From Phyllosticta citribraziliensis (Eukaryota), in contig NW_027117353.1 in the NCBI RefSeq assembly GCF_038025025.1, positions 310,001-374,000 on the forward strand: 64,000 bases of DNA, read 5' to 3'. Below, in pieces: positions 199 through 58,659 of the stretch. Each line of letters begins with the position of its first letter. The first letter of the stretch is position 1. The notes below the pieces were generated by a model. That model searched no databases, was not told the origin of the DNA, and saw nothing but the letters and a program-made list of their open reading frames with translations. A program made the position numbers and the translations under genes.

Positions 199-697
199 GC
201 ATGCACTCTGTAGCATACTGTACGTAGTCGCTGAGCGACTGTGCGAGTGGATGTTTGATTGCATTGCGGATTGCTGGACTGGCTAAATTGCTGATACTCT
301 GCTGCGATGGCATAGCGTGGCGTAGTAGGCACGAGACGAGGCGCTTGTCTCTTTGGCGACTGAACACCTAGGACACTCCTTTGCGTACATCAAAGCCTAA
401 ACTACCATGAATTGATGAATCATGACTACCTTCTCTGTCTGCATTTCGTTGTGTTTCCTCGCGTCCTAGCTGTACTACGGTCACCTGACCCGGTCTCTAA
501 TCGTTCTGTTTCCCTTCCTCTTAGGCTCATTCACAAGCTTGTCCGCAGTATAATCTCTACCCAAGAAATCTGAGGTAAGGCATCCTCGGCCCAAGCGGAT
601 CTGCGTGAAAACACGAATGCGAATGGGCTCACAAGCAGGGAGAAGAATACCAAGGCTGCTGAGTGGGTAGGCGAATCAATGAGGAAATCATGCAAAT

Positions 698-1148
698 ACA
701 ATCAGGGAGGTCTTGTGAATGGAGTGCGATAGCCGGGAAGGGAGCAAGAATATGGGTACCACAATACTAACATGCTTCGGCTTGCTTCTTGGGATGGAGC
801 GTGTGACCGTCTTCGTCTGGCGGTGCGCCCACATCGGCGAGCCTAGATCACATCTGACAATCGTATGTCATCTCTTTCTGAATGCACTTGAAAAGGAGCT
901 GTTGATAGGGATTTGCTTTTTGGTCAACAACAATGTATATGCTGTTAAAGGCGCGTTGGCACTTGGCCAAAGGTTGAATCGAACAATCAACACGGAGCGA
1001 AATTCAGATAGCAATTTCGATGATAACGGAACCCGATATTTGGTTTGTAGTGAAGGCTTTTGTCGCGTGAACGAAGGGTGGTTGGTCGCCCGCTTCGGTC
1101 GACGTGGACAATACCAAGGGGGCGCGACAATACTAACGCAGGAACAAT
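698..1148 (+). promoter_or_regulatory. Cluster of eight same-strand ACAAT (HMG-box-like) motifs upstream of the pheromone ORF
   Basis: ACAAT starts at 698, 761, 857, 930, 983, 1108, 1127 and 1144. Three are AACAAT, and ACAATACTAAC occurs identically at 761-771 and 1127-1137. SOX/MATA-type HMG domains bind (A/T)ACAAT or AACAAAG cores. Confidence 0.55.
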
Positions 1149-1332
1149 ATCAACACCATGCCAAGATGAGAATCACCGTTGATTCTTTCAACGCCACCAC
1201 TTCATTCCATCCGACAGACAAACCCTCGACCATCCAGACCCTCCAAACTCTTTGTTCGTAACCTCGGACGCAATCAGAATTGCCATACTCGACCCAAGGT
1301 CTTGCTACTGCAGGATGGACTCCCAGTTCGAG

Positions 1333-1338
1333 TATAAA
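1333..1338 (+). promoter_or_regulatory. TATA box of the pheromone precursor gene
   Basis: TATAAA lies 183 nt upstream of ATG 1516 and is followed by a pyrimidine/CA-rich leader. The start context is AAAATG. Confidence 0.55.
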
Positions 1339-1515
1339 TCTCGCTCGACTTCGACGACCAGAGACTTTTTTCTTCATCCCACAACTTCCAACTCATTTCC
1401 AAACCAACTTTCCAAGTAAGCCATCCAGCGAGCCTTCTCTCCTGATCTGGCATCATCTGCGGGGCAATCACTCACCAGAGCAAACAGGTTCTCCAACTTC
1501 AATCCAATCGCTAAA

Positions 1516-1722
1516 ATGGTTTCCCAAATCATCGCCGCTCCCGTCAACCAGGGCTCCAACGTCGACATGTACGGCTGCACTGTCCAGAGCAACGAGCCCG
1601 TCAACCGCGGTTCCAACGTCGACATGTACGGCTGCACCGTCCAGAACGCTGAGCCCGTCAATGAGGAGAAGTTGATCCGCAAGGGAAAGCTCGTCGACAT
1701 GTACGGCTGCTCCGTCATGTAA
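1516..1722 (+). CDS. Repeat-containing a-class/hybrid-type lipopeptide pheromone precursor (68 aa, C-terminal CAAX CSVM)
   Basis: MVSQIIAAPVNQGSNVDMYGCTVQSNEPVNRGSNVDMYGCTVQNAEPVNEEKLIRKGKLVDMYGCSVM*. It has no signal peptide, a terminal CAAX box, three VDMYGC(T/S)V(Q/M) copies and strong C-ending codon bias. Differences between the repeats include synonymous ones. Confidence 0.8.
   Translation: MVSQIIAAPVNQGSNVDMYGCTVQSNEPVNRGSNVDMYGCTVQNAEPVNEEKLIRKGKLVDMYGCSVM
1540..1710 (+). repeat. 57-bp coding tandem repeat (2 full units plus a diverged third) within the pheromone ORF
   Basis: Units lie at 1540-1596 and 1597-1653. The 18-nt core GTCGACATGTACGGCTGC is identical at 1561, 1618 and 1693. 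Confidence 0.95.
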
Positions 1723-1794
1723 ATCTCCCCACACGACGACACTGCACCTGCGCAACGCTGCACCGAGTAGTGTGCGGCCGCGGCGGTCCCGGAT

Positions 1795-2011
1795 GACTGG
1801 TCCCTCTTCTCTTTCTCGCGCTGCTGCTGTCGTCTGCTGCGCTCCTCGCGAATCCGACTCGACCCTTTCGGACGGCTGTCATCCAATAGTCTTTGCGGAT
1901 ACGGTGTCTGACGAGCCCCTGTCGGATACGAATCCGCCTTTTCCGCCTCGTTCGGCGCGAAGGGGCTGATTTGAGCGCTTCTTTTTCGACACTAGCAGCG
2001 GCGGACCAGTC
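1795..2011 (+). other. Nested multibranch RNA secondary-structure element in the presumed 3' UTR of the pheromone gene
   Basis: Nested complementary pairs: 1795-1803/2003-2011 (9 bp), 1819-1825/1994-2000, 1828-1832/1987-1991, 1839-1844/1973-1978, 1846-1850/1956-1960. They enclose three hairpins, some with G-U pairs on the + strand. Confidence 0.6.
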
Positions 2012-3159
2012 TCTCTCGACTTTCTTCCCCTCTGCGACCAACCATTTACGACGAACACTTTTGCGAAGACCAAACACCTAGAATACTCAAAAACAACCAA
2101 AAAAATTACGGCTTGGAAAACCTCTCTCCCCCCCCAGATTGGAAATCTGTTGGACTGGCGCCCGGCGGTCAACCCCCCTTCTTGTTGATATTGGGATCTC
2201 ATAAAATTCAAAAAAGAAACAACCACGGGCGCCATCTTCTTCTTCTTGGAAAAACGACAAAACTTTTTACTCATAGGAGATGCCGCTGCGATTCTCGAGT
2301 GCGGGTGTATGCCTGCGCTTTTTTTTCTTTTTTCGGTTGGTCGGGCTTGTTTAGAAATCTCTTCCTCATAGATAGATGGATGAATGGAGTCCTGTCCTGC
2401 TACCTGGCTTGTTCAATGGTTTGTGAGTGATGATGTGGTCGTGGAAAGGCGGTGTAGCTCAGGGCGAGCGCCGTGACTGGACGGGGATCGCAAGTAACTT
2501 GGTTTTGGCCAAGTCCTGGGCTGTCGTGGTGTCGATCTCGGACACGGCTTGACCACGCAAGATAAGCATCGATTGGAATCTCGACGCATCAGACATTGTT
2601 TCTTGGTGTTGGTGACGAGTGTCGATGCAAGTTGGAAGATTATGGCGCAGAGTAGAGACCAGAAGAGGGCCATGCAGGTGGGGGAGTCGGAAGCCGGAAC
2701 GTCGCGTTGATGGCTGGCTGGGGTCAGCGCCACGCCACGCCACGCCACGCACCACCAGGACCAGGACCAGGACCCAGGGAAGGGAGCTGTGCCACCCTTC
2801 TGTCTGGACCACCGCTCCCGCGACACTTTGTTTCTCGCAACTTGACCCATATAGTTAGACGGGCTGCTTGCCTGAGCCTCAACAACATCATCTTCTCCCA
2901 CGGCCACCCTCCTCGCCGGACCCTCGCTCGACTCTGCGTAATGTCGCGATAGCCGCCGCCCTCGTCCGCAGCACTCGCCGCCGCAACCCAGCAATTCCTC
3001 CGCCGACCTCCTAGGCCCCAGAATACCTAACCCCCTCGAATATCTTCTACCCACCGCTCCGCTCCTAGAACCAGACATCCTACCGAATCCTGCGTCTGCG
3101 TCCGCGCCTCGCAGCTCTGCTCCGGCAGCTTCGTCCTCCGCCCGCAGTCCGGCCACGCC

Positions 3160-5160
3160 ATGGCCACATTCGCATCTCCGTCGCCTCCATCCTCCCCCTC
3201 ATACGCAATGCCTCGCCGGAATTGGGCACGGAAGTGCGAGAGATATTGCTGCCGAATATTTGCCTACTTTCCGCTGTCAGTAGTCTACGGTCTGACGACG
3301 TGGGCGGCCTGGGTATGCTGGCAGATTGGGGTGCATGCTCCCAATACTCCATCCCATTGTAAGGACAATTTTTTCTGTTTTTTTGGTGCAGGACGGCAAG
3401 TGTTGCTATGAAGATTGGCATGCGCTTACGCTTCGGATATAGACTATGTGACTGCGCTGCTGGCGTGGTTCCTCTACGCATTGCTCAACTGGAGCTACAC
3501 TATGGCCGTCTTTACGGACCCGGGATCGCCTATTGATGGTGTCAAAGGCGGCTACAGCTCGCTGCCGACAACGGAGCAGTCGATACCGCACACGTCGTTT
3601 ACGGTCAAGGCGAACGGGGAGCTGCGCTATTGTAAAAAGTGCCAGACAAAGAAACCGGACCGCGCGCATCATTGCTCCACCTGCGGGCGGTGCGTATTGA
3701 AAATGGACCACCATTGTCCGTGGCTGGCCGCTTGCGTGGGCCTGCGCAACTACAAGCCATTTTTATTGTTCCTCGTATACCTGTCATTGTTCTGCTGGGC
3801 GTGCTTCGCCAATTCCGGCAGCTGGTGCTGGAACCAGTTCACAAACGATGACTATATGGACAGCTTCTTGCCCATCAACTACATCATCCTGGCAGTCATC
3901 GCAGGCATAGTCGGCCTGGTCATGACTGGCTTCACTGCCTGGCACGTCCACCTCGCCACCCGCAACCTGACGACGATAGAATCTCTGGAAAAGACGCGCT
4001 ACCTCTCGCCGCTGCGCAAGTCCTTCCAGCACTTTACGGCCTCGTCTCAGCGCAACTACGTCAACGACCCGCAGTCGCGGCCTTCGATCGGCGAACAGCT
4101 GCTCGAAATCCACGCCAACGCCCTCCCCGGCGTGACGCGCCCCGAAGAAGGCGAGGACCAGCGCGCCGTCTCCCCCGCGCAGCAGTCCCTCCACCGCAAC
4201 TGGGTATCGCTTGAAGCCGCACGCGAGCGCGACCGCTACAACGAATACCTGGACGAGCTCGACAGCGAGAAGCTGCCCAACGCCTTCGACCTGGGCTGGC
4301 GCCGCAACCTGACGCACGTGCTAGGCCCGGTGCCGTACCTCTGGGCGCTGCCCATCTGCAACACCACCGGCGACGGCTGGTACTGGGAAGCCAGTCCGGA
4401 TTGGATCGCCGCCCGCAAGCGCATCGCCGACGAGCGCTTCGCCGCCATGCAGCGCCAAAAGGCCCGCGAGCGCGCCGCCGGCTGGGGTATCGAGAGCCCC
4501 CCTGGCAGCCCCGGCGCCCCTGGGCAACCCCCTTCGCCCCCTGTCATCACGCGCACGCATCTCACCGCCAACCGGAACGCACCCACCGCTGATCCAATCA
4601 CCAACCGCTCCGGCTCGTCGGCGTCGCCGCCCCATCCCAGCTCCGCATGGCATAACCGGCCCCTGGCTGCGGCCGGCCGCAACACGCGCTTCCTGACGAC
4701 GAGCTCGGGCATAGCAGCCGTGCCGCGCGAGGGCCGCCGCTCGCCCAGCAAGGCTGACCAGATCCTGGGCCGCGCGCCGGGCCTGTACAGCGATGACGAT
4801 CCATCGTCGGCGGGGGCGGCGGCCAACGGCGGCGGCGCGGCAGTGCAGATGCAGGAGATGCGGAGGAGGCGGTATGATGATTTGTACGACGATTTGGACG
4901 ACGACGACGACGACGATGATGAAGATGAGGAGGAGGGAGATGGCGCGAGGCGCGCTGAGCTGGCGGCGACCAAGATGACCGTTGCGCCTGCGAATGGCGG
5001 CACCACAACATCGTCGCAGGCGCAGACGCAAAACTGGAACGACGTCCCGGCCGACATGGTGGCAGCGGCGGGCTCCAACAAACCAAAGACGTGGCGCGGC
5101 CCGCGCGCGCGCAGGAGAGAGGCCGACGACGAGTGGGACGATTGGGGTCCGTCGCCGTAG
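3160..5160 (+). CDS. PFA3: DHHC palmitoyltransferase, Pfa3-type (intron 3359-3442)
   Basis: DHHC-CRD CKKCQTKKPDRAHHCSTCGRCVLKMDHHCPWLAACVGLRNYK, with TTIE and NAFDLG motifs. A GTAAGG...ATAG intron joins the 3160 and 3415 ORFs in frame. Confidence 0.88.
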
Positions 5161-15197: not shown

Positions 15198-18100
15198 TCA
15201 CGTGGCCCCCTGCCCAAGCGTGCCCAGCCACCCCTGGACAACCTCGACGACGCGGCCCTGCAAGAACGGCTTCGAAAGCACCACGTCGGCGCCCGCCGCG
15301 TGCGCGTCCTCCTCCTCTGAGCGCGACGCCAGCGCCGTGAGGGCGACGACGAGGGCCCCCGGCGACAATGAATCGCCGGAGTGGTGGCACGAGCGAGATG
15401 GCGGCTGCTGGGGTTCCGCGGGCAATGAGGATGGTTTTGGGGAGGGCGCCACGGTGGCAGGGGGAAGTGGTGGGGAGGGGCGGTGGCGTGGTCGTGATTC
15501 GATGGCTCGGATGGCGCGGGTCGCGGCGAAGCCGTCGAGGATGGGCATCATCATGTCTGGTGAGTTTGTTTGCGTCAGTTTGTGTGGAATGCGTGCGTGG
15601 TTGATCGATGCGGAGAGTAAAGCGGGCGAGGGTTCGTAGGAAGATTCCACACTGGAAGAAGAGTGTGGAAGAAGAGTGTGGAAGAGGGAAGGGGAGGGAA
15701 ACGGGTGGCGGAGCTCGTTGCATGATTCTGGCCTGGCGCATTCCCCGAGTGAATCCACCTACCCATAAAGACAATGTCGAACGCTGAGCCCTGTCCATGC
15801 GCTCGCTCAAAGGCGTCGACCGCCTGCTCCCCGTTGCGCACCATCTCGTAGTTCACAAAGCCATGCTTTTGCATAATCCTGCCCAGCAGCATCAGATTGA
15901 CTTCGTTGTCGTCGACGAGCAGCAGACGCGGACGTGCCGAGGAAGGTTGCTCTTGATGCTGTTGACCCTCCACCGCCGTCGCCGTCGTGCTGCTCAGCCT
16001 GGTTCCAGTCGTGGGCGTGGTGATGGGCGAATCGTATTGACTATCCCGCTTGCGACCATCTGGCGGAGGAATGACTGGCGGCGAGGCCGAGTGAGTGAGT
16101 TGGGGTACTTGCGTGAGCAGTGGCGTTGGATTTGCTTGCTTCCCATTACCCTGCACTAAGTTCTCGCAGTACCGTGGACGCTTGGTCGGGGAAGGGGCGT
16201 AGTACGGATCCGGGGACGGTGGGTCGACGTCCATGCGCTCCGGGGGTGGAAAGGTTGACTGAAAGTGTATGGATTTGCTCGACAGAGGATTGCCATATGG
16301 ATCCTCCAGACACGCAAAGAGGGATTTGGCGAGCTTGTTGGGGCCAAGCGGACGGCAGGCCGTCTTTTGAACTCGAAAGCTGAATTCAAAGGCCGCCGAA
16401 GTGCGCCGCAAGGAGGGACTCACGCCAATGCCGAGTAATGCCACTCTTCCAGCTTCGCACTGAAGCTTGGCACTTTCTGCAATGTACTGGTCTGTCTGCT
16501 CCACAATCAGTATGTCGGGCTCGCAGACTTCCTCTTCTGGATCCAGGACGGTTGCTTGAAACCAGTCGCGCAAGTACATGTTCAAAGAGTCCTTGATCAT
16601 CGGCGGGAGCCCCAAAATAGCCACTTTCGGCTGTTTCTTTCTGAGAAGAGAAATGGCGCGGTCAGCTGATGTAATGGCAGTGCTTGAATTGCAAACACTG
16701 CCCTCAACCATCGGGATTGAAATGGAAATGCTGCTGCCTTTGCGTGGCTGGCTGCGGACGTGAATCTTGCCGTCCAAAAGCGCGACGAGACTCTTGACGA
16801 TTGACATGCCCAAACCGACACCTTGGCTCGCCATGCCAGAGTCTTCTTGTGTGAACGGGACAAAGAGGTGTTTCTCCAGGAAATCTCGGGACATGCCTTT
16901 TCCTGAGTCCGTGACAGTAAAGACTACGTGTTTCACGTTGTCTTTGACGGAACTCACAGAATCTTCCAAGACGTTGTTCCTGTTCCACACCGTCTTCGGA
17001 CTGACGATGGGCGAGCAGGGCGATTCGGTCAGTTCTCGATCTGCGGCGTTGTCGGAGCTCGAGGGCTTATCGAAGCTTTGTCCTTCTTTGACGTGAAGAG
17101 AGACGCCGACGAACCCTTTGGAGGTGTACTTGAGCGCGTTGCCAATAATGTTGGACATGATCCGGCGGAGTGCTCCAGGCTCAGTCAGAAACCTCCAATT
17201 ATCCCGCCATTGGATGTCCAGAGTGACTACCACGTCCTCCATCGAATTCGGGTTGTTGTAGACGTGCCCGCCGGCCGTCACCTCGACCGTTTCCTCACAC
17301 AGGGTGGCAATATCAGTGGCGGATAATATCCCGTAGCTAGTGCGATCAGATATGTTGCAAATCTCCGATGAAAACTGGTTCTGGCCATAAGCTTCTGGTC
17401 TCTTTCGGCGGCGTTGAAACTGATTTATCTGTGCGTAGGATAGGACGCTGCTCAGTGTATCGTGTAGCGTAGTCCCGCACGACCGGATGCTTTCAGCTAG
17501 TCCTTGCTGGAAGCTATCTAGCTGTGTTTCTCCAAAAAGTTCGACGGCACCGAGGATCCCATGAAGAGGTGTTCTGAGCTCGTGGCTGACTGCGGATACA
17601 AAGGCTTCCTGTTGTTTGACTGCCGCGACCGTATCTAGACGGGATATTTCGGCTTCGACGGCATGCAAGAAGCCACGAAGTGGTCTAATGTCAGAGCCTG
17701 GCGTGAAAATGGGAGATGGTTGCTTTGTCCAAGCAAAACATCCCGCCAGGAGCTTGAGACTGATCGGATCCATCAAAGGGGAGAATATCAACTGGCGGGC
17801 CTCGGGAAACGCACGACACAGTTGCGCGACGTCATCTCGAGGATGAGCTGGTTGCAATTCTTCACCGAAAAAGGTAAAGGGTTTGTGGTTCTCTTCAATG
17901 TACCAAATGTTTCCACATGGATACCTTTCGACAAGAAGTTGAAGGAATCTTTCGTCGATGTGATTCAGTCCGAAGCCAGTGTCAGCTGGCTCTTTTGTAC
18001 AGGGTTGACCGTAGGAATCCTTCGACCAAAAACCAAGGCTTTCTCCAGGGTGTCTGGCGAAGTTCTTCTTGTGGTAGTCTGTGCTGGCGAAAATCCTCTC

Positions 18101-19320
18101 GCCGGGGGACTCGCTCCGTTGACGACGTTGTTGTGATTTGTATGAGCGAGAATGGCTTTGGCCAATGAGTGATGGTCTTCTCTGAAGTGTCAAGTCCGCG
18201 GATCTTGACCTTGGCTTTCGAGCAGCATCCGCACTGAATCCTTGGTCCGGTTCTGCTGCCGAGGTATAGGATCCTTTCAAATTGACAACGCCATTGACGA
18301 ACAAAACACCGTCCACATCCAAGGCTTCTCCAAGTGACTCTGCAGCTCTTCGAAAAACGCTCTGGTAGGTTGTTTCTGGGGATTGCTTGAGAGGGCTTTC
18401 GTTAGGTTTCGAACGTTCGTCGGACATGTGTGAAGTTTCGAACTGCTCGTTTGATGAAGTTGCAGCATTTGGACCGGGCGTTGATCGCGTCAGGGCATCG
18501 TCGTTCTGGTTCGCCATGGCCATGCCTTCACATGCTGACGAACTGCGGTATTTGCTCCAGGAACCCAAACTTGGACGCTTTTCATGCACTTTTGAAAACA
18601 ACGATCGATACTGGATGAAGGAGCCAAGGCTTCCACAGATGCGGTCAACGCGCTGGCGAAGATAGATTTGCCGAGTACTTTCCAATTGAGACATACACTT
18701 GTTGGCCACCGAAACCAAAAACTCCAGGTCGTCGGCAGAGACACTAACTCGACCCATCGAATTGTCGACAACGAACAGCGTCCCTATTTGGATCCCAAGT
18801 TTTGTGGTTAGGGGAGCAGCAGCATAGTGCCTCAAGTGTGGGGCATCGGAGACGCACGGCAAGTCGGCCGTCCGTTCGTGGTGCATCAGGTCAACGGCAA
18901 AGGCTCCATTGGCCAGCAGAGGCCCGGGTGCCTGTACAATTGCTCGTCGTGCCAACCACAGCCAGGTCTCTCTGTCTGCTTCTGACCTTGCCAACCGCAA
19001 GGTGTCGGGATTGCTGCTCGTCCGTCCCCAATTGCCAGCCACGAGTCTTTGGGATCTGCCATCGCTCAGATTTACAAAGGCCCCAAAGACGTTGAGTTGG
19101 GTGGCAATAACCTGTGCGAAGGCGTCCAGGGCGTTGCAAACATCGGATGACTCTGGAGGACAGGAATCGAGGCCTAGCAGGCTCTCACGTCCAGCAGGAT
19201 GAGAAGGGAATTGGCCAGTGTCCGTGTATCTCAATTGAACGGTCAGCAAGACACGACTCCAGGATTGGAGCCAGAAAAGACCAACTTGCGGAGCTCATGG
19301 CTGATGATTGTGGCAATCAT
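15198..19320 (-). CDS. Hybrid histidine kinase (GAF, HisKA, HATPase, degenerate REC, REC); intron 15557-15762; 5' exon uncertain
   Basis: GAF (LRHYAAAPLTTKLGIQIGTLFVVD), H-box VSHELRTPLHGILG, N-box NIIGNALKYT, G1 VTDSGKGMS, F-box LFVPFTQE and G2 GVGLGMSIV. The REC domain reads LLLVDDNEVN...IVFM|D MMMPILDG...VALTA...LSKP after splicing. The start at ATG 19320 (MIATIISHELRK) needs a short intron with a weak acceptor, so it is tentative. Confidence 0.88.
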
Positions 19321-20358
19321 TCAGGCAGCGCAGCTCGAGAACAGGCCTCGATGTAGAAAGACTTGGAGCCAGGTTGTTGTCATTGAGAGAACATTTCGCA
19401 AGAGGCCAGAGGGACGGATGATGGAGCTGAAAAGATGGTGCAGCGTTTCGGAGAAAACAGAAACCGAAAACACGGTAGAAGGGTGGTAAAGGTTTGGACC
19501 AAAATATTTAACCCTTGGATCAACATCACAAAGAACAGAGGCAATGACATGCCAAATGTGCACGTTGACGTCAATCGGCAGCCTTAGCGGCGCGGGAGGA
19601 CGCGCCCGGCAGGACGGCCGCCCTGGCTAAGCTGATGCTGCAGCAATAATCGATCCACTGTTGCTGCTCCAAACCAATCTCGGTAGCCTGTGCCCCGGAA
19701 GCATGCCTGGATGATCGTCATTGCGCAGGACGGGTCCATCAGACGGCATTCCAAAGACGACGTCCCGGACGGCGACAGCGGCAGAGACGAGAGGCGCACA
19801 GAGAAAGGGAAAAAAGCCGCTGCAGACAAGAAGAAGAGAGTCGAACGAGACAAGACGGAACGGCTCACAGCCAACTGCGGCAGAGCGAAACAGCAGGGAA
19901 AGACACGGGGAGACTCGAATCAAAGGGAGGGGAGAAAGAAGTCAAGACAGTCCCTGGCTAACCACCCAGCAGCTCGGTGGTCAGAGCCCTGCGTGACGCA
20001 TGCCCCCCACCGATGTCATTGCACATGTTCCATCGAGGAAAAAAGGGTCCTCTCCCGCAGACATTGGCCCACAGGCCAGAGTTGAAAAAGAAGATGATGA
20101 GTGCGTGTCGCGGCCAGGTGAATCTTGACAAAGTCATGAGAAACGTTGAGATGCAGCGGGGAGAGTTGGATGGACACCATGTTGGCCGGGCGAGCCATGA
20201 CGCACTAACCGCCGCCGCCTCCAGTCGGCCGTCCTCTCCGCTGGTTCCCTCTCTTCCCCAACCACCACTGCTCGCAGCCATCGATCGCATCGCCGCCACG
20301 CTTCTGATTCGTTTGCGTTGCAAGGGAGTTTGCCTTCGCTGCTGGGCCCTGTCGCGCC

Positions 20359-21678
20359 ATGGGCCGTACCGAACCCACCATTGTCAAACCGCCCCAGTCC
20401 TTTCGCCGCCAAGTTCGCTCCAGACAGGCCAAGGCCACCGTCAACAAGTGCGTCCCGGAAATCCTCAAGTCCTGCCCTCGCGCTCGGCGAGGCATTGGTG
20501 CTGCCGAGCTCATAGTGGACCCGCCGCCCCAAGGCGCATCAAGAGTAACCCCAAAGCCCCCGGTCAAGACCAAGGGCAGCAAGAGAAGGCCCCATCACAG
20601 TCATGACGAGCACCGTGACCATGTTGCCGAAGCAGACGGGAGCCACCATGCCATGTCCAACGCTCCACCGCATATACGGCTCCAAGCGGCAGAAACGCTT
20701 GAAGCCGCGACCCTTCTGGCCTCGTCTCCCACTGCAAAGCAATCTCGCACGGCCGTCCTCAACATGGCGTCACCCTTGCGCCCTGGCGGTGGCCTCTTCA
20801 ATGGTGCCACTTCGCAAGAAGAGAGCCTCTGCATGCGCACAACCCTCTACCCGTCCCTCCAAGAAGCCTTCTACCGCCTCCCCGAGGTAGGCGCCATCTA
20901 CACACCCGACGTCCTCGTGTTCCGTCACTGGGACGAAGACGCCCGCGACCTGAACAAGAGAGACCGCTTCTTCGTTGATGTCATCTCTGCTGGCATGCTC
21001 AGATTTCCTGACCTAGATGGCGGCGGTGAAGACGACGACGACGACGCGCCAAAGCGCTACGCCTCTCCGCGAGACCGCGAGCTTGTCATCAGCAATATGC
21101 GCGCCGTCTTGCGGATTGCGCGCGCAAAGGGCGTCGATAGACTAGTCCTCGGCGCTTGGGGATGCGGCGCATACGGGAACCCCGTGGGCGAGATAGCCAG
21201 GGCCTGGCAGACCGTCTTGCGGGGCGGCGAAGGCAAGAAGAGAGCAAGCGCCAGCGAAAGCTGGGGACCACTCGAAGTCGTCTTTGCCATCAGAGATAGG
21301 CGCATGGCTGAAGACTTTGCGGCGTGCTTCTCTCCTCGCCTTGTCGTTGAGGAGTCACCTTGTAGGAATACTGCCAGCACTGCGTGCGATGATGTCACAT
21401 GCGACGATGGCGAGACGGCCGCAGTCAATGAGATGCGGGAGAAGATTGCAGAGATAGAAGCTCAAATGGCCCAATCCCGTGTGCCCGGCCTCAAGGCGCG
21501 GTTGGAGGACATACTGGCGGGGTTGAAGAGCCAACTTGGGGAGCACGTTGGACCAGATGGTGACGACGCTGGATCCATCGACGATGATGGCAGTGAACAG
21601 GAATACGCAGACGAGCACGATCACCATGTCCTCTCCGATGACGCGCTCGGAGGAGCTTCTGATGGCTCGGACGACTGA
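20359..21678 (+). CDS. Microbial-type poly(ADP-ribose) glycohydrolase (DUF2263/TIGR02452 macrodomain family)
   Basis: Intronless 439-aa ORF with AVLNMAS...PGGGLFNGATSQEESLC (GGG-X6-QEE PARG signature), IYTPDVLVFR and LVLGAWGCGAYGNP. Confidence 0.85.
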   Translation: MGRTEPTIVKPPQSFRRQVRSRQAKATVNKCVPEILKSCPRARRGIGAAELIVDPPPQGASRVTPKPPVKTKGSKRRPHHSHDEHRDHVAEADGSHHAMSNAPPHIRLQAAETLEAATLLASSPTAKQSRTAVLNMASPLRPGGGLFNGATSQEESLCMRTTLYPSLQEAFYRLPEVGAIYTPDVLVFRHWDEDARDLNKRDRFFVDVISAGMLRFPDLDGGGEDDDDDAPKRYASPRDRELVISNMRAVLRIARAKGVDRLVLGAWGCGAYGNPVGEIARAWQTVLRGGEGKKRASASESWGPLEVVFAIRDRRMAEDFAACFSPRLVVEESPCRNTASTACDDVTCDDGETAAVNEMREKIAEIEAQMAQSRVPGLKARLEDILAGLKSQLGEHVGPDGDDAGSIDDDGSEQEYADEHDHHVLSDDALGGASDGSDD

Positions 21679-24275: not shown

Positions 24276-25596
24276 ATGCTCGGGTTCATGGATTATGTGC
24301 AGAATGCGTTCCACGAAGCGTCGCATTGGAATCATGACAACTCGTACTCCTACCTCACAGCGACGGCTCAAGGTACCTCGAACACCACCACACAGCACCG
24401 GTCGAGTCTCTGCGCTAACAATTTTCTGCAGGTCTGCTGGACTTCCAGACGCCTTGGGGACTGCGGCTGAACCTCTCGTCTCTGTCGTCTCCAAACTTTG
24501 CCACGTCCTACTCGCTTGGCACCGTGGGAGTCGTCGATGGCTCCCTGTCCTACCTTTACTCGTCGCTCCCGCTGAACGCAAAGTCTCGTACGAGCGAGCT
24601 CGACCTCCACAACCTTATTCGCGGCTACCGGCACATCAAAGAGCTCCGTAGGCCCGACGAGCCTTTTTGGTGGGAGCTATGGCACCGGGGAAAGAGGGTT
24701 GACCGCCGAGGTGCGCTCCTCCAACAAGTCTGGTCCGACAGCGACGTGCGGCTTTGCTAAAACCGTGCTCAGATTTTGTGTTGTACGGGCGACTGTTCCT
24801 GCCCACAAACTCGCTCGAAGCGCTGTACCTGCGTCGCGTTTCACCGACGCGGCAAGTTCGTATAGCAGCGGTCAGCGACTCGAACATGAATAATGGTGGG
24901 ACCATTCTCGGCGTGGTGCAAAACGATCATGGCAAGTACAGCACCGAGTTGCTCTACAGCACGGATAGCGCGCTCCTCGGCGCCCGCGGCCTTTACAACT
25001 TCGGGCATGACCCCAGGGGGCCTGAGGCGGTGGAGGGGAGAACCCAGAAGCAAAGCGCCGAGAGAGTCAGCGGGCGGTTCAGCGCCGGCGCAGAGGTTTA
25101 CTATGGGCTGCTCAATAAGAGTGGGGGAATCAGCACTGGGTTAAGGTTTGCAACGCTTCCCCAGCATGCCGGCTTCCCATATACGATGACGCTCACGCTG
25201 AATCCCCTGATGGGGAGCCTGTCGTCGACGTATGCGGTCAAGGCCGGGCCCAGTCTCGCGCTTTGCTCGCGATTCGACTTCAACTTTTACTCAAACGAGA
25301 GCGATCTGCAGCTTGGCTGCGAGTTGTGGCAGCGGAGGAAGGAGGCAGACGAGGCCGAGTGGGCAAGGCGAATGATACGGGCCGAGTGGGCGACGACGCG
25401 CAACAAGAGGGCTCAGCAACACGACGAGGATGTCACGGGAGTGCTCAAGGCGCGAGTTGATCAGAAGTGGAGGATCGGGGTGTTGTGGGAGGGCAGAGTC
25501 AAGGAACTCCTGTTCACGGTGGGAGCCAGCTTCGATCTGAAACGACGGGAGCAGATCTTTCGCGCCGTTGGCGTAGAGGTTCAGTACTCATCCTAG
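24276..25596 (+). CDS. MDM10: Mitochondrial distribution and morphology protein 10, ERMES/SAM beta-barrel (introns about 24373-24431, 24711-24772)
   Basis: [36 protein letters not shown]...[22 protein letters not shown]...[21 protein letters not shown], and C-terminal GVEVQYSS. Confidence 0.95.
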
Positions 25597-46526: not shown

Positions 46527-47889
46527 CTCTTGAGAGATGCGCTGCGCCTGCTGCTCGAGGCATGGACTGCGGCAGCGAAGGACGCTGCAGGCAGCTTTAA
46601 AGAGTGTCCGCTCCGGTTGTTGAGAAGATGTAGAAGTGACGACGGGAGCCAAGCCAAGCTAAGCTCTGAGCCCCATCGGAGTTAGCGGCGGTAGGGCTGA
46701 CAAGGATTCACGTCACGTGCACCCAATTGGAATCGAGGTGGCTCAGCACTGTAAACACTGTTTGGTCCGTCTCAACGTCCAGAAACCAGCCCAACAAGAC
46801 TAGTCCACATGGTAAAGGCACGGGGAGGCGGCACAGTTAGAGCAAGTTGATCGTGCCAAGGCGAGCTCCAGCCCGTTCAAACAGCCAGTCTAAAGTCAGA
46901 GAATGCACCAAGAGAAGAGGCATTGTCCAACAACGAAACAACACAGGATGACGGCCTTTTCTAGCGCCCGCGGCATGTCCTCAGAGAGGTACACAGGAGA
47001 CCGAGTCCAGGCAGCAGTGGGCATAGCCTGCGTGACGAAGCCCGCACTTGGCAGAGGCGGGTGGTCCACTAGAAAAATGGTCCTCTGAGCAGTGCATCAG
47101 ACAAAACAAGACGATGACATGCAGGAATGGCATTACATGTGACGGGTCGTAGTGCCCGTCAATGTAACGCGGTCGAGCAGCCGAGCCCATCACGCGGGAG
47201 CTCCCTTTCTTGGCCGGGCCCCCGGATGACGGAGCCGGAGCGCAGGCCGCGGTCCGCTCGGTACCTACACGTTCTTCGTTCTTCGCTGCCCGCTGGAGCT
47301 GGAGCTGGAGCTGGGCGGATGGCGGGAAAATGCGGAGAGCTTGGACACCACAGGGACTCGTATCCGCCGCTCTATGCGATACCATGATGCGCCCGGGATC
47401 GCGAAGATTTTTTCTCTCTCCTGTCGCATTCGTCGTCGTGCTCCTTGTGTTGCAGCAAAGGCGTCATGGCGTCTCGCCTGTCGCTGTCGCTTGCCTCGAC
47501 GCTGCGCCGCGCCCATTGATTCCAAGCTCTTGAAACCACAACGGCGGTAATCGTCACAACAACAACAAAACATGTATCGACAGTCGAAGAAGAATGGGGG
47601 AGTCGCAAGATAGTCATTAGTGATTCGTCACTACGTAAGAAGAGAAAAAAAAGTCGAAGCCAAGAAAGGAAAAAACAAGACACTCGTAACCAGCAGCTTC
47701 CGCCATGCCGATGACCTTGCAAGAGAACCCGTCAAGCCCAATGTCATGAGCCGTCTAACGCCGGATGGTGGTCCAGATTAAGCCGTGAGTCGCTGCTGCA
47801 AATGCAGAGGCATGGCATGGGCCAAGAAGAGAAAGGAAATCGAGTTTGGGTATCGAGGTGTGGATGATTCAATCGACATTCCAACGCGA

Positions 47890-48231
47890 CTAAAACTTTA
47901 GGATGATGTACCTGTGGGCGCGCGCAGTCAGTATTGGGGCGCTCTGGTGGTGGCAGCGCGAAAACAGGGCGAAAACGTACAGCGCGTGGATGATACCGGG
48001 AATGTAACCCAGAATCGTCAACAGGATGTTGATGAGGAAGTCGGCATTGCAGCCGCGCTCGAGGAAGACACCAAGAGGCGGGAGGACAATGGCGAAGATG
48101 ATCTTGATGATGTCGCTGGAATCCAAAAGTCAGCTCAGCGCCTGGAAGCCGAGGGGCGCGCGCCGCGACCTGGCCATCGAGGTCAGAGGGCGGCGCAGGG
48201 CAGCAAAGACTCACCTTCCGGTGAAAGGCAT
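47890..48231 (-). CDS. PMP3: Plasma membrane proteolipid Pmp3, 57 aa (introns 48116-48214, 47912-47980)
   Basis: Spliced MPFTGSDIIKIIFAIVLPPLGVFLERGCNADFLINILLTILGYIPGIIHALYIILKF*. Confidence 0.93.
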
Positions 48232-48265
48232 GGTGGCGGTGTGTAGTCGAGAGTATAGACTGAGT

Positions 48266-48270
<5 letters not shown>

Positions 48271-48299
<29 letters not shown>
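48271..48299. repeat. (TG)n microsatellite in the PMP3 5' region
   Basis: About 14 TG units, read directly. Confidence 0.9.
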
Positions 48300-49380
48300 C
48301 TGTGTGAGAGGTGATGGGAGGAACGAGAAGCGTGGTGGAGAGGAGGCCGAGTGGTGGTATTTATTGGCGGACCTAGGCTACGAGCCGATGACGTACGGGT
48401 CCTGTCAAAGAGCTGGAGGTCGGTGACGCCTGCGCCTGCTGAGCCTTGGTTGTGAGGACTCCATCCGGCTGGACCCAACGCAATGTCCATCCGCGCATCC
48501 CGACGCCCCAGGCAGTCAGCCATCCATTTCCTCCTCCGCTGTGGCGCCACGCCTCCCGTTTGCTGTGCACTGCTCAAGACACTGATGAGCCTCGACTGCG
48601 CCAGCTTTCGCTTCGTTGTTGCCGTTCGAATCAAGTTTTTTCCTGCGCCACAGCCCGTCTCTACAGTGGCTGTATCGACGATCAGCTCTGCTCTCTGGAG
48701 CTCGCCATCTGCAAACGCCCTGTGGCAACCAGCGAGCTTAGCCAAACATGGCAAAAGGCCGTCATCTGATCTTGGAAGTAAAAACGCGGACTCAGCCCTG
48801 CTGCATCCTTCTGCCCGTTACCTTGGCATTCGCAGTCATGGCGCCTGCAACATCAAAACAAAAAGCCAACACTCAATAATCCGCACGCTGCGGACCAAAA
48901 GAAGTCCGCTTAAGCATATATTAAACTAGCGACCGTTCGCCGGCGGCTAAAGCTGAACCTGACAGCCCTGACCCTTGACCCCATTGTTGACTGAAACACT
49001 CCCTTGTTCTTGCCGTCAACCTGTTTGACAGGCTCAGAACTCGCTAGCTGTTTGGCAAAGCTTGATCATTCCTGCTTGACCTCAGACCAATGAGTCGAAG
49101 CAAATGTCCCACCACGACTATGCTGTCGTGTCACACTTCATCACCAAGTATTGGAGCAACATCAACTGCATGAATCAAAATCGTGGATATTTCGTTCCTA
49201 TCATTCTATACGCATTTGTGCCAATCATAAGCAAAAGGAAACTTCCTCCCCCTAATGGCCTCGCGGTTAACAAGATCCATTAGTCTCCCACCCAAAGTCC
49301 TTGCTTTTGGGGTACTGCATCCATTACCACTCTGCTTTTCCGACAGCTCCTCAGACGACCCCGTCTGCGCCAACAGGCGC

Positions 49381-51872
49381 TTAGATGAGGTTGGTGAAGG
49401 CACGGTTGACGGGCGAGCGGAGGGGCTTGACGTCCTTGTAGAAGTTGACCGTGGCGACGGCGCGCTTGGCAATGCCCTCGGGGGTGAACTCGAACTTGGC
49501 GTACACCTCCTTGTAGGGGCCCGAAGCACCGAAGCGGTTGAGACCAAACTGCTCGTGCGAGTACTTCTCCCAGCCAAGGGTCGACATGACCTCGACCGAC
49601 AGGGTAGGGATGCCGTCGGGGATGACCGACAGCCTGTAGTCCTTGGACTGGGCGTCAAAGACCTCCATGCAGGGCATCGAGACGACACGGGCCTCGATGT
49701 TGTGGCTGTCCTTGAGCGTCTTGACGGCCTCAAGGGCAATGCCGACCTCGGAACCGGTCGAGACAATGGTGACCTGGGCGTTCTTGTTCTCAAGAGCGAC
49801 GTAGCCACCCTTGATGCCGTTCTCAATGGTGGAGCCCTCGAGCTGGGGCAGGTTCTGGCGGGTAAGGGCAATGATGGAAGGAGTGCCCTTGGAGGTGAGG
49901 GCCATGTAGTAGGCAGCAGAGGTCTCGTTGCCGTCAGCCGGGCGCCAGACCATCATGTTGGGCAGGGCACGGAAGTGGGCAAGAGTCTCGATAGGCTGGT
50001 GGGTAGGGCCGTCCTCACCAAGACCAATCGAGTCGTGGGTGGCAATGTAGATGACGCGCTGGTGAGCGAGGGAGGAGAGGCGGACGGCACCGGCGGCGTA
50101 GGAGACGAAGTTGAGGAAAGTACCACCAGCGGGGATGAGGGTGCCGTAGGCAGAGATACCGTTCATGATGGAAGCCATGCCGTGCTCGCGCACACCGTAG
50201 CGCAGGTAGCGGCCAGACCACTCACCGATGCCGAGCTCGGGGGGCTGGAAGTCGACGGCAGACTTCCAGCGAGTGTTGTTGGAGCCCGTCAGGTCGGCGG
50301 AACCAGAGAGCAGCTCGGGGATGGTGTCGTAAATGGACTCGAGAACAGTCTCGGACAGCTTGCGAGAAGCAATGGCAGCGTCGGTAGGCTTGTAGGTGGG
50401 GAGCTTCTTCTCCCAGCCCTCGGGAAGCTTGCCGGCAAGACGGCGGGCAAGGTCGGCGTGGAGGTCCTTGTGCTCCGAGCCGTACTTCTCGAAGAGCTTG
50501 TTCCACTCAGCCTCGAGGGCAGCACCCTCGGAGGCCTTCTTGCCATACAGGTCGTAGACCTCCTTGGGGACGACGAAGGACTGCTCGGGGTCGAAGCCGA
50601 ACTTGGCCTTGACCTGCTTGATGTCGTCGGCCTTGAGGGGGTTGCCGTGGACACCACCGGTGCCCTGGAGCTTGGAGCCAAAGCCAATGGTGGTGGTGAG
50701 ACGGATCATGGAGGGCTTGTCCTTGACGGCCTGGCACTCCTTGATGGCCTTCTCAATGGCGTCAAGGTCGTTGTCACCGTCCTTGACCCAGACGGTGTGC
50801 CAGCCGTAGGCCTCAAACCTCTTGGTAACATCCTCAGTGAAGGCGCACGCGGTGTCACCGTCTGCAATTATTGTTAGCACAAAGTTCGATCAACCGTTCG
50901 AGTCTACTCACCAATGGAGATGTGGTTGTCGTCGTAGATGGCAATCAGGTTGCCGAGCTTCAAGTGACCAGCAGTGGAAGCAGCCTCGCTGGCAACACCC
51001 TCCATGGCACAGCCGTCACCGAAAAAGGTGTAGGTATAGTTGTCAACAAGGTTGTAGTTGGGCTTGTTGAAGACAGCGGCAGTGTGGGCCTGGGCGATGG
51101 CAAGACCAACGGCGTTGGAGAAACCCTGGCCAAGAGGACCAGTAGTGACCTCAATACCGGGGGTGTCGTGGGACTCGGGGTGGCCGGGGGTGATGGAGTC
51201 GATTTGCTTTGAAGAGTTTAGCGGGTCTGATCATCATGGTTGCAAGATAAGAACTTACGCGGAAAGCCTTGATGTCGTCCATGGAAACGGCGTAGCCGAA
51301 CAGGTGGAGCAGAGCATACTGGAGCATGCAGCCGTGACCGTTGCTAGATGATTGTCAGCGATGGTCCATAGCAGATTGCGACTGATTCAGTCGGAGAAGA
51401 GTTCCGCCAAGCCATTGCGTCACAGGTGAAAATTGAAGCTCCCAGCTAGAGGAGCACCACGGCCATCTTGCCGTCAAAAGACAAGATTGGGGCAAAAGAG
51501 CTCAATTTGCAGCTGTGCACACGGTGGAGCTAGAGAGACGTACGAGAGAACGAATCTGTCACGGTTGATCCACTTGGGGTTCTTGGGGTTGAACTTCATG
51601 AACTTGTTGAACAGGACGTGGGAGACGGGAGCCATGCCCATGGGCGCACCCGGGTGACCCGAGTTGGCCTTGGCGGTGGCATCGACCTGTAGGCAGGATT
51701 TGGGTCAGCATTGAAGGGTCTGGCGATGGAAAAGGACGTTGTTGAGAGTTTGGCGGGGTACAAGGTGAAGATGAGGGGGAGGGGGAGGGGCAGGGGCGGG
51801 TTTGGTTGGGCAACGTACGGCCAGCGTCCTGATGGTGTTGATGGCAAGCTGATCAATCTCTCCGTAAGCCAT
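49381..51872 (-). CDS. TKL1: Transketolase (introns 51687-51818, 51344-51543, 51207-51258, 50862-50911)
   Basis: [12 protein letters not shown]...[37 protein letters not shown]...[17 protein letters not shown] and [16 protein letters not shown]. Codon bias is extreme. Confidence 0.97.
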
Positions 51873-53602: not shown

Positions 53603-53910
53603 TGTGGAGCGGGAGACGGCGACGAATGGGCAATGGCCTCAACGGATGTAGCGGTGGGCAGTGAGGAGCCGCTCGGCAGGCTGGATCGCGCGAGAGGATG
53701 GAGGCGTGGGTGTTGATGCGGTAGATGGAGCTGAAGTCTGTGTTTCGAGGCTAGCCACAGAGCTGCCGGTTTGAGACGTCGGCCTTGGCGTTTCGTGAGG
53801 CCGACACGCGGTGTGGCGTGGTGCCGGTGCGGTGCGGGCCTTACAGAAACTTGGAGCTGGCCGCCGGCCTTTTGCGCCAACGCATCTCCTCTCGCGCGGA
53901 GTGGTTGGAG

Positions 53911-56900: not shown

Positions 56901-58659
56901 AACAAGGACCTCTTGATTCTACTTGACGAGTTGGTTTGCTCAACTCTGGAAAATACCATTTCGGTCAAGGATCAACCACGCGGCCAGCAGTACCTTAAAG
57001 GATTCAAAGACATTATGAGCCGCTTTGTCAAAGGTTGCAACACCTTCAAGGACCACAATGCTGAGCTCATATGCTTCAAGTCTGCGCTTCGCATCTTGGA
57101 GAAAGCTGATTGCCTGGGCGACGAAGAGGAGGCTTACAAAACAATGAAGCGCTACCTCAGGACTCTGGATGATGACTTGGACAAGGTCTTGCCTGACCCC
57201 AAGGCTTTGCGCGCAGAGGATGATGATGCGTTTTTGAAAGCTGTCTTGCAGGCCGTGTCGGATCTGCCCACGTCGAGCTTGGGACGCGATGGTATTGTAC
57301 AATTCGTGGATTCGTTTGGACCATGCTAACTTGTGGCAGGTTATCTTTTGAGCATCGAATCGAAGCTACTCAAGGTTGCTCGAGTGCAGAGCAAGTCGAG
57401 CTCGAGCATTTTGCAATCGGAGGCCTCATCGTGGGTTTCTATTGCAGAGGCCTTGGCCAATATATCAAGCCCCGATGAGGCTCAAACGGTCAGCACCATT
57501 ATTTACGACTTGTGGGAACTTGGTCAGTTTTGCAGACGCACTGGTTGGGATTCGGCTAACAAGCATCAGATCTTTCTGCGACCGACCGCCACGCGCTGCT
57601 GAAAGCTTGCCGTAAAGCTCTGGGCTCACTTGGTCTGGATCTGAGAGCAGCCATGCTCTCGTCCTTGGTCGAGGAAGAGGATCAGAGCACCCATGCTCGG
57701 CTGGTTTTGGCGAACATTCTGATATCTTCGTTGCCAGGTATGTCACAAATTTCAACACTGACAAGATTAAACTGACCGCGCCCAGATAATCCTGGAAAGG
57801 AAGAAATCTCCGGTCAAAGCCTGAATGGTTTCGTGGCTCGATTGAGTACATACCTCGAGACGGTCGAGAATATGCGGGACCTCCATGCGGCTCTCAACTG
57901 CATCGACACGGTTTTGAAGGAAAAGGTAGCCTGTCTGGCTTTGAACAACCCTGACACAAAATATTGACCTCTTTCCAGCACTGGCTCGTATCACAGTACG
58001 CTGTTGAAAGCCTGATCGAATCTCTCTCTCGTCTCTCTTCACCAGTCGGCCCTGAGTTGCCCGAAGACCAGGCATCCATCATCTACACTCGCATTTGCAA
58101 CACGACTCAGCTCATCATTGCCCTCCACCGCACGCGCCTCGGTGGTCGTTTCCACGTTCTGATCCCACTCCTGCAAAGACTCCTTCGATGCCTTTTCAAA
58201 TTCGACATGCGCCAAACGAACCTGGGCGCCAGTCTCCACCCGCCTTGGTTATCCACCCGCTCGGACTCCAGCCCCATGCATGTTGCCCAAGCCGCGTCCT
58301 TTGCTCGCCTCATCACCACGCTCTGCTCGCCCACCGTCAGTGCCGTTCGCGGCTTCCACCGCGCCCGCAAGCGGCCTGCCAACGGCCACACCGAGCTGGT
58401 CGACGACACGAAGAAGGCGCGCGAGTACGCTGGCCAGTATGTCACTGCGCTTATCGCTACATTCTGTGCTGCTCAGCTCGCTGGACGCATCTCGCCAGAA
58501 AGCAGGGCTGCGCTTATGCCTGCATTATACGCCTGTGCGGACGTCGTTGGCGTCGAGGGCATGCGGGCCATGAACGCGGGCATGGGCGCGGCCGAGCGAG
58601 CCATTTGGAAGGGTGTGTATGCCGACTGGAGGCGCTTCGGGCGGTGGGAAGGACGTTGA
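53911..58659 (+). CDS. URB2: Nucleolar pre-ribosomal protein Urb2/Npa2 (introns about 53929-53993, 57292-57339, 57523-57569, 57738-57785, 57926-57978)
   Basis: Large helical protein with N-terminal EWVLRWLL and C-terminal Urb2 domain HRTRLGGRFHVLIPLLQRLL...AREYAGQY...ALMPALYA...RAIWKGVYADWRRFGRW. Canonical splice sites chain the ORFs. Confidence 0.85.

Follow-up and report, generated by a model that had tools for sequence, protein, structure and literature searches.

We describe a tiny open reading frame (ORF) without annotation, at 1516..1722 on the plus strand of a 64-kb stretch of fungal genomic DNA (contig NW_027117353.1, positions 310,001 to 374,000; here called the window, in whose numbering positions are given). 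The sequence VDMYGC(T/S)V(Q/M) occurs three times within its 68 amino acids (aa), and the third copy forms the terminal CaaX box CSVM, which is directly followed by the stop codon. The ORF is very probably a real gene, and from its sequence and that of its relatives we put at about 0.63 the probability that it encodes a multi-copy precursor of farnesyl-peptide (a-class lipopeptide) pheromones. The parts of the ORF are as follows.

1516..1722, plus strand: precursor ORF, 68 codons and then the stop codon TAA; translation MVSQIIAAPVNQGSNVDMYGCTVQSNEPVNRGSNVDMYGCTVQNAEPVNEEKLIRKGKLVDMYGCSVM
1561..1587, plus strand: copy 1, VDMYGC with the internal CaaX-like TVQ
1588..1617, plus strand: spacer 1, SNEPVNRGSN, with EPVN (1594-1605) invariant across the three-lineage alignment described below
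1618..1644, plus strand: copy 2, VDMYGC with the internal CaaX-like TVQ
1645..1692, plus strand: spacer 2, NAEPVNEEKLIRKGKL, with EPVN at 1651-1662 and the basic stretch RKGK at 1678-1689
1693..1719, plus strand: copy 3, VDMYGC with the terminal CaaX box CSVM; stop codon at 1720-1722

The first-pass annotation had proposed a short ORF of 68 codons with three VDMYGC copies, a TATA box, a good start context, strong codon bias, no signal peptide and a terminal CAAX box, and each of these features was recovered from the sequence. The ORF ends C-S-V-M followed by TAA, and its start codon, in the context GCTAAAATGG, is the sole ATG between 1334 and 1530, downstream of the TATAAA at 1333. The codon adaptation index (CAI) of the ORF frame was 0.86 and its GC content at third codon positions (GC3) was 0.88, compared with CAI values of 0.37-0.67 for the other five frames over the ORF and 0.67-0.72 for three neighboring genes (Rrp5, DHHC and WD40). 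Several frames of this region, on both strands, are open; an open frame alone says little here, and the ORF frame stands out because of its codon usage. No long or signal-peptide-like hydrophobic stretch was found in the 68 aa (best 9-residue Kyte-Doolittle mean, 1.68, at residues 2-10). A C-x-x-x-stop ending alone is not rare, with 31 short M...Cxxx-stop ORFs in the 64 kb, and a degenerate pattern for DMYGC had three matches in the window versus 0.04 expected (100 shuffles). In Pfam the ORF product gave only a sub-threshold match to an apicomplexan microprotein (19.9 bits versus a cut-off of 27), which was taken as chance, and there was no Rfam match in 600-3200.

The repeat is also visible in the DNA itself: two 57-nt units (1540-1596 and 1597-1653) are 86% identical, and a 25-nt core at 1692-1716 represents a third copy. 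Synonymous changes between the repeats (GGC/GGT, ACT/ACC and AAC/AAT) had been read as a sign of selection on the peptide. The changes are present, but the argument is weak, as the two full repeats differ by two synonymous versus three non-synonymous codons. All three copies have the same 18 nt for VDMYGC, an identity for which recent duplication or codon bias would also account. More telling is the location of the non-synonymous differences, all three of which fall outside SNVDMYGCTVQ and EPVN.

A phmmer search of 1.84 billion representative proteins returned six proteins at an E value of ≤0.001, two of which are relatives of the ORF: P0001 (208 aa; E value of 3.8e-23) and P0004 (133 aa; E value of 8.9e-6). 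The core of P0001 reads MVSQTPILPVNE-ADMYGCTVQ-NNEPVNQ-ADMYGCTVQ-NTEPVNQ-ADMYGCTVQ-NTEPVNQGRAWYLRKGEV-AMYGCSVI and then continues; it contains four copies (ADMYGCTVQ three times and AMYGCSV- once) and has the MVSQ start and the RKG stretch in common with the window ORF, and LRKGE is seen in a relative at the position equivalent to RKGK of spacer 2. P0004 reads MTPRPIFGCTVQ-MIPRPIFGCTVQ-SAEPVNE-MIPRPIFGCTVQ-SAEPVNE-AIPRPIFGCTVQ-KEDF, with four copies of IPRPIFGCTVQ. In a three-way alignment of the window ORF, P0001 and P0004, the residues G-C-T-V-Q and E-P-V-N were invariant. The residues preceding the Cys vary among the lineages (VDMYGC, ADMYGC and PRPIFGC) and are uniform inside each precursor, and the copy number is three or four. 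An invariant box and spacer combined with a changing peptide and copy number fits a pheromone precursor. P0001 and P0004 keep the CaaX boxes and vary in peptide and copy number; a terminal CaaX box followed by a stop was confirmed in neither.

The remaining matches, P0002, P0003, P0005 and P0006, were dropped as long repeat proteins sharing only a ...YGCT- or IFGCEVQ-like repeat, and the three whose sequences were examined (P0002, P0005 and P0006) have no terminal CaaX box. P0006 (720 aa) has many ...REIFGCEVQxVKPVxD... repeats that resemble IFGCTVQSAEPVNE of P0004, and its Pfam matches were all weak, without a matched stretch; this box-plus-spacer likeness is probably a coincidence.

Sequencing-run contigs were then considered. 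Part of 1200-2300 is contained in 12 runs, and four of these (X3, X12, X10 and X4) were aligned to 1000-2500. X3 is an RNA library, an environmental freshwater metatranscriptome, whereas the library type of X12 is not on record; X10 and X4 are DNA-like runs from related organisms and covered all bins. X3 provided a 306-nt contig colinear with 1513-1818 (three differences, no gaps), as well as further pieces at 1921-2257 (15 differences and four gap letters) and 2272-2306, leaving 1000-1512, 1819-1920 and 2307-2500 without cover. The X12 contigs at 1493-1729 and 1981-2131 were both identical to the window, and this run also had uncovered stretches. An RNA-library contig therefore spans the ORF, and the X3 and X12 contigs are consistent with transcription of the ORF, though short of proof and without indication of strand. 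The X3 contig over the ORF region is 99% identical to the window, while the next piece downstream is only ~95% identical; a close relative of this leaf-fungus-like genome seems to be present in the X3 water sample and is possibly active there.

In X10 and X4, 3 of the 40 listed substitutions fall within the ORF. Two of these, at 1607/1608, change CGC to CAG (R31Q), restoring the residue found in copy 1, and the third, at 1614, is synonymous (Ser33). All 12 of the listed indels lie outside the ORF, and in the pieces over 1516-1588 and 1651-1722 the gap letters are fully explained by these. Joints in a low-depth X10 contig (1166-1351, 1395-1492 and 1519-1823) were set aside as another organism or a repeat. 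Relative to P0001, the peptide, spacer lengths and copy number of the ORF have changed, while the P0001 flanks resemble the window to about the degree expected of non-coding DNA between close relatives (53/63 downstream). Slow flanks around a fast-changed ORF in P0001, together with near-identity in X4 and X10, fit a mate-recognition gene. The earlier proposal of an a-class pheromone thereby gained support in its testable parts, namely, the CSVM ending, a codon usage typical of well-expressed genes, the RNA-library contigs and the relatives, while the pheromone function itself is what we infer from them.

We next compared the ORF with known pheromone precursors, for which the available portions of the papers cited were used. 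The first-pass annotation had likened it to the hybrid (h-type) precursor HPP1 of Trichoderma reesei. As defined by Schmoll et al. (2010, PMC3068285), h-type precursors have three copies of (L/I)GC(T/S)VM, one of them terminal. The window ORF also has three copies, one terminal, and matches this motif at G, C, T/S and V, with Y in the first position and Q at the end of the internal copies. It further resembles T. reesei HPP1 and the Fusarium h-type in being a short precursor without a signal peptide and with a probable long 3' untranslated region (UTR), and it shares with HPP1 a location off the cyanase-EBP2 locus, Trichoderma hpp1 being placed between sec23 and a 14-3-3 gene (PMC3068285). In contrast, the h-type belongs to the Hypocreales and the window ORF to the Dothideomycetes, with different flanking genes; its internal boxes end in Q instead of M, Tyr instead of Leu/Ile precedes the Gly, Kex2 sites and a phosphorylation site are lacking, and the copies are separated by a conserved xxEPVNx spacer. 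A requirement for male fertility was demonstrated for HPP1 (PMC3068285), whereas the window ORF is known from sequence alone. Among h-type precursors, Kex2 (KR) sites were seen only in T. reesei HPP1 according to the same authors (PMC3068285). The likeness to the h-type motif is one of general form, and the ORF, having no Kex2 sites, is not hybrid in the HPP1 sense.

The statement that this repeat architecture is mainly known from another fungal class held, since multi-copy CaaX precursors were found described in Sordariomycetes (Trichoderma, Fusarium, Verticillium and Ceratocystidaceae), while Mdm10 similarity (detailed below) places the window in the Botryosphaeriales, Dothideomycetes. In Verticillium, Huntiella and other Ceratocystidaceae, the precursors are multi-copy, with each copy having its own CaaX/CpaX box (PMC10182648, PMC13037118). 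As in the family described here, copy number varies between related species and the copies are nearly uniform within a precursor. However, their repeats abut, the box directly precedes the K or R that opens the next copy, and the box ends in M in all sequences listed in file S2 of PMC10569646, whereas the window ORF has EPVN spacers of 10 and 16 residues and an internal Q, with no similarity beyond the box.

The single-copy a-factors (S. cerevisiae-type and Neurospora mfa-1-type) are similar in being <100 aa long, in lacking a signal peptide, in ending with a CaaX box whose last residue is of the farnesyl type and in carrying a hydrophilic N-terminal extension to be cleaved off, but they have one copy each (file S2, PMC10569646) versus three in the window ORF. 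The cyanase/EBP2 neighbors, MPST... N-terminus and (N/G)(G/S)YC core of the Sordariomycete a-type genes are all absent from the window ORF. The putative a-factor family BCIN_13g03330 of Leotiomycetes (PMC10569646) likewise comprises short, mostly unannotated CaaX/CpaX-terminated genes outside the Sordariomycetes, and both CTVM and CSVM endings occur in it; unlike the window ORF, its members have a single copy, are rich in Cys (...CDGYECCCIPIPCTVM) and share an N-terminal part, NGPGSAA...SSIVKPE, that is conserved. Since YGC, CTVQ and EPVN have no occurrence in the available sequence file for this family (PMC10569646), it is a different family from the window ORF. An experimental precedent for maturing internal copies from one precursor is rhodotorucine A of Rhodosporidium toruloides, whose precursors contain tandem copies with CAAX-like spacers and yield several mature peptides (cited in PMC3068285); this is a basidiomycete yeast, the peptide sequences are unrelated, and the processing enzymes were given as unknown by Schmoll et al. 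(2010, PMC3068285). Taken together, these comparisons suggest that the ORF resembles a multi-copy a-class precursor in its workings and is an orthologue of none of those described.

According to Wilson et al. (2023, PMC10569646), no a-factor gene was known in Pezizomycotina outside the Sordariomycetes before a putative Leotiomycete gene. In the open literature searched as full text, no a-factor gene was reported for Dothideomycetes, Botryosphaeriaceae or Phyllosticta, a prior description in subscription journals being possible, and the peptide motif strings were not found there. Ste6-like genes were present, one per genome, in all fungi of a survey of Dothideomycete ATP-binding cassette (ABC) transporters (PMC6071951); a Ste6-type exporter thus exists in every surveyed Dothideomycete without a known ligand gene. 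If the proposal is correct, the ORF would supply the missing Ste3 ligand for a class with many major crop pathogens and would open this question to direct test by synthetic lipopeptide, receptor reporter and deletion followed by a cross. It would also provide a handle for searching other Dothideomycetes, namely, a G-C-(T/S)-V-(Q/M) box plus an xxEPVNx spacer upstream of a PFA3-type gene. The case is wholly computational, and the candidate would be of clear interest to fungal mating biology.

How such a precursor might be matured was deduced, in all its steps, from the sequence and the established yeast a-factor pathway. The TATA promoter would drive transcription, a dense ACAAT cluster upstream may be read by a mating-type protein with a high-mobility-group (HMG) box, and a 72-nt intron in the 5' UTR may be spliced out. 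The precursor, lacking a signal peptide, would be cytosolic, and Cys65 in its terminal CSVM would receive a farnesyl group (Ram1/Ram2 type), after which the last three residues would be cut off (Ste24 or Rce1 type), the carboxyl group thus exposed would be methylated (Ste14 type) and, finally, the N-terminal part would be cleaved away. Glutamine, the last residue of the internal boxes, directs farnesylation. Methionine, the last residue of the terminal box, does so as well (Schmoll et al. 2010, PMC3068285). The internal CTVQ boxes are valid for farnesylation only at a C-terminus, so that cleavage behind the Q is needed; cleavage after Q24 and Q43 would expose both as C-terminal farnesylation boxes. 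Outside the CaaX boxes, no element is better conserved across the three lineages than the xxEPVNx spacer, which is a candidate recognition site for the endoprotease that would make these internal cuts and for N-terminal trimming. Up to three ...VDMYGC(S-farnesyl)-OMe peptides could thus be released from one precursor; these would be exported by an ABC transporter of the Ste6 type and be sensed by the mating partner's Ste3-type receptor.

The maturation of all copies by a spacer-directed protease is a tentative part of this scheme. Also possible, at somewhat below even odds, is that the ORF represents a founding Dothideomycete family of polyprotein lipopeptide pheromones, read by a protease at CTVQ|xxEPVNx| and separate in origin from the spacer-less Sordariomycete precursors. 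If so, a 68-residue precursor would give rise to three farnesylated peptides, combining the polyprotein logic of alpha-factor with the chemistry of a-factor, and the candidate would point to a novel processing protease.

Several observations weigh against a pheromone precursor. Prenylation, secretion, receptor activation and mating-type-dependent expression of the product are all predicted from the sequence, and prenylation of the internal CTVQ boxes requires a cleavage for which we know of no enzyme. KR/RR Kex2 sites are absent from the 68 aa, in which only an RK at 55-56 was found. The criteria of Wilson et al. (2023, PMC10569646) for Sordariomycete/Leotiomycete a-factors include a Ser/Thr-rich N-terminus and a Gly-Tyr motif; the N-terminus of the ORF, MVSQIIAAPVNQGSN, is not Ser/Thr-rich, its core is Tyr-Gly-Cys and not Gly-Tyr-Cys, and a scan of 21 ORFs from the 64 kb revealed neither a cyanase nor an EBP2 gene. 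Only two relatives were found, and the models of both run past the short ORF, P0001 passing the stop by a GT..AG skip and P0004 ending in ...CTVQKEDF and not in a CaaX box. Word-indexed protein searches with the ORF gave none at 37-119 aa and, at 120-2000 aa, 36 candidates with shared words, none of which scored; a protein atlas search gave no usable match; and a degenerate DNA pattern for GCTVQxxEPVN had no matches in metagenome contigs. Contigs do not reveal the strand or the level of expression, and DNA may be present in an RNA library. In the aligned contigs, a further 99 substitutions and 23 indels lie beyond those listed, and an 84-nt piece over 1563-1646 has seven differences, so that the middle of the ORF may differ more. 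An alignment scan of metagenomes was also made, in which 1 of 23 pattern matches (L001) passed tblastn; it was rejected as a fortuitous match lying antisense to a bacterial gene for a secreted protein.

The ORF could instead be a real gene whose prenylated product acts outside mating, either as a lipopeptide in self-signaling or quorum sensing or as an intracellular membrane-bound peptide. The sequence features that point to a real CaaX-terminated gene would suit such a product just as well, no tie to mating type was seen, the RNA-library contigs came from a freshwater metatranscriptome and not from a cross, and possible non-mating roles of a-pheromones are discussed in the Huntiella paper. 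However, tandem precursors of peptide plus CaaX units are described only for pheromones in the portions of the literature consulted, and copies that are uniform within a precursor but differ in peptide among lineages fit receptor-ligand recognition, and we consider the non-mating explanation unlikely.

We also weighed a non-prenylated repeat peptide, that is, a ribosomally synthesized and post-translationally modified peptide or a Kex2-processed repeat protein with an incidental terminal Cxxx. A short repeated core with conserved spacers is found in multi-core precursors of this kind, and the 31 short ORFs counted above indicate that Cxxx-stop is common by chance. Against this, the ORF has neither an N-terminal signal peptide nor dibasic KR/RR sites flanking the repeats, the scanned ORFs included no tailoring-enzyme gene in the vicinity (the neighbors being a DHHC palmitoyltransferase, WD40 and Rrp5), and within every copy of the three lineages conservation is highest at the CaaX-like tetrapeptide, making this explanation quite improbable.

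A longer spliced protein, as in the 208-aa P0001 model, would arise if a 52-nt GT..AG intron at 1719-1770 removed the stop codon, in which case CSVM would be neither terminal nor prenylated. P0001 runs from ...MYGCSVI into ARPRRSRMTG..., and the window allows the same join (donor AT|GTAAAT, acceptor ...GAGTAG|): skipping 1719-1770 in the window DNA reproduces it, with ATG-TAA becoming an Ile codon. The P0001 tail corresponds to the window frame at 1772-1966, with 53/63 residues identical (84%) and an in-frame 2-residue gap. However, the X3 (1513-1818) and X12 (1493-1729) contigs are unspliced and cross the supposed intron without a gap or joint, the downstream frame has a CAI of 0.55 and a GC3 of 0.58, below the neighboring genes and far below the ORF, and looks non-coding, and flank similarity of this degree is expected of close relatives' non-coding DNA. 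In addition, the N-terminal 66 residues of P0001 are translated promoter and 5' UTR, including the TATA box, with frame shifts relative to the window, which makes the whole model unreliable. The longer protein is therefore very improbable, and P0001 is probably a faulty gene model around a four-copy orthologue with a CSVM-stop ending. For annotation, the lesson would be that the ORF of a relative can be hidden in a 208-aa "hypothetical protein" whose model takes in promoter sequence and passes over the stop codon.

Least credible is that 1516..1722 is no gene but an open frame that arose by chance within a GC-rich tandem repeat, or that the real gene is the 114-codon antisense ORF at 1374-1718: several frames are open on both strands, the antisense frame sharing wobble positions has a CAI of 0.67 and a GC3 of 0.87, and the contigs give no strand, but the sense CAI of 0.86 exceeds that of every other frame and of the neighboring genes, the TATA box, single ATG and start context suit the plus strand, the gene models of P0001 and P0004 both use the sense frame, conservation is concentrated on G-C-T-V-Q and E-P-V-N, and the antisense ORF has no Pfam family.

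Returning to the proposed pheromone gene, the following features were assigned around the ORF.

698..1148, plus strand: ACAAT cluster, eight same-strand motifs, two of them within exact ACAATACTAAC (761 and 1127)
1333..1338, plus strand: TATAAA box, 178 nt upstream of the ATG
1416..1487, plus strand: putative 5'-UTR intron of 72 nt, GTAAGC...ACAG
1723..2306, plus strand: probable long 3' UTR of uncertain extent, assigned from the RNA-library contigs and low coding signal

TATAAA occurs eight times in the whole window, both strands counted. The P0001 model reads ...INLARL..., and the window frame across the TATA box gives SSSINLARL, which suggests that the relative retains the TATA element. HMG-box proteins recognize cores of the ACAAT type. 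The eight ACAAT motifs in 460 nt form the densest such window of the 64 kb (50 forward-strand motifs; Poisson P of ~5e-9 per window), and the 11-mer ACAATACTAAC is found within the 64 kb only at 761-771 and 1127-1137, both upstream of the ORF. The cluster thus contains candidate binding sites for an HMG-box protein (MAT1-2-1 or Ste11-type), and control by MAT1-2-1 is offered as a lead only. Both the Ste12-type pheromone response element (TGAAACA) and the CTATTGAG motif were absent from 600-1515. A diverged X10 contig carries AACAATACTAAG beside the same place (loose end at 1142); this contains a branch-point-like TACTAAC, yet it is positioned upstream of the TATA box.

In the P0001 model, ...NQLSK is followed directly by FSNFNPIAKMVSQ, just as splicing of the putative intron at 1416-1487 would have it. 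In the relatives' contigs over 1346-1606, the listed substitutions and indels occur only at 1347-1350 or 1430-1473, the latter cluster falling within this putative intron. Schmoll et al. (2010, PMC3068285) note long 3' UTRs in a-type pheromone genes, and canonical polyadenylation signals were absent from 1723-3100. Short tandem runs (CACGC/CACGCCA-type, then ACCAGG three times) lie at 2724-2775, between the 3' region of the ORF and the DHHC gene.

The assignment of the window to a Phyllosticta-like member of the Botryosphaeriales was based on the Mdm10 exon (24703-25593), for which 1208 proteins were found at an E value of ≤1e-20. The best named species among the 120 matches listed had the following identities.

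94%: Phyllosticta citriasiana
83-85%: Botryosphaeria dothidea, Diplodia seriata and Neofusicoccum parvum
78%: Saccharata proteae
74% or less: Pleosporales and others

The ORF was expected to lie between PLD and PFA3 orthologues, and the downstream neighbor is indeed a PFA3-type DHHC gene, whereas PLD was not confirmed upstream. Further neighbors are a WD40 protein and Rrp5.

1-198: gene end upstream of the ORF, a 65-aa fragment with no Pfam match
3412-5160, plus strand: DHHC palmitoyltransferase, downstream neighbor; nearest atlas cluster named PFA3 (score, 0.92)

The first exon of the DHHC/PFA3-type gene (ATG near 3160) is split from its main ORF by an intron, and the C-terminal tail of the protein is long, is of low complexity and includes a run of ~20 Asp/Glu residues (4880-4960). 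Elsewhere in the window, three large ORFs had no Pfam family at an E value of ≤1e-5, namely, 53799-57326 (plus strand, 1176 aa), 49231-50874 (plus strand, 548 aa) and 47747-48817 (minus strand, 357 aa). A hybrid-type histidine kinase gene (HisKA and HATPase_c; 15578-19294, minus strand) adjoins a gene with a microbial-type poly(ADP-ribose) glycohydrolase domain (20308-21675, plus strand).

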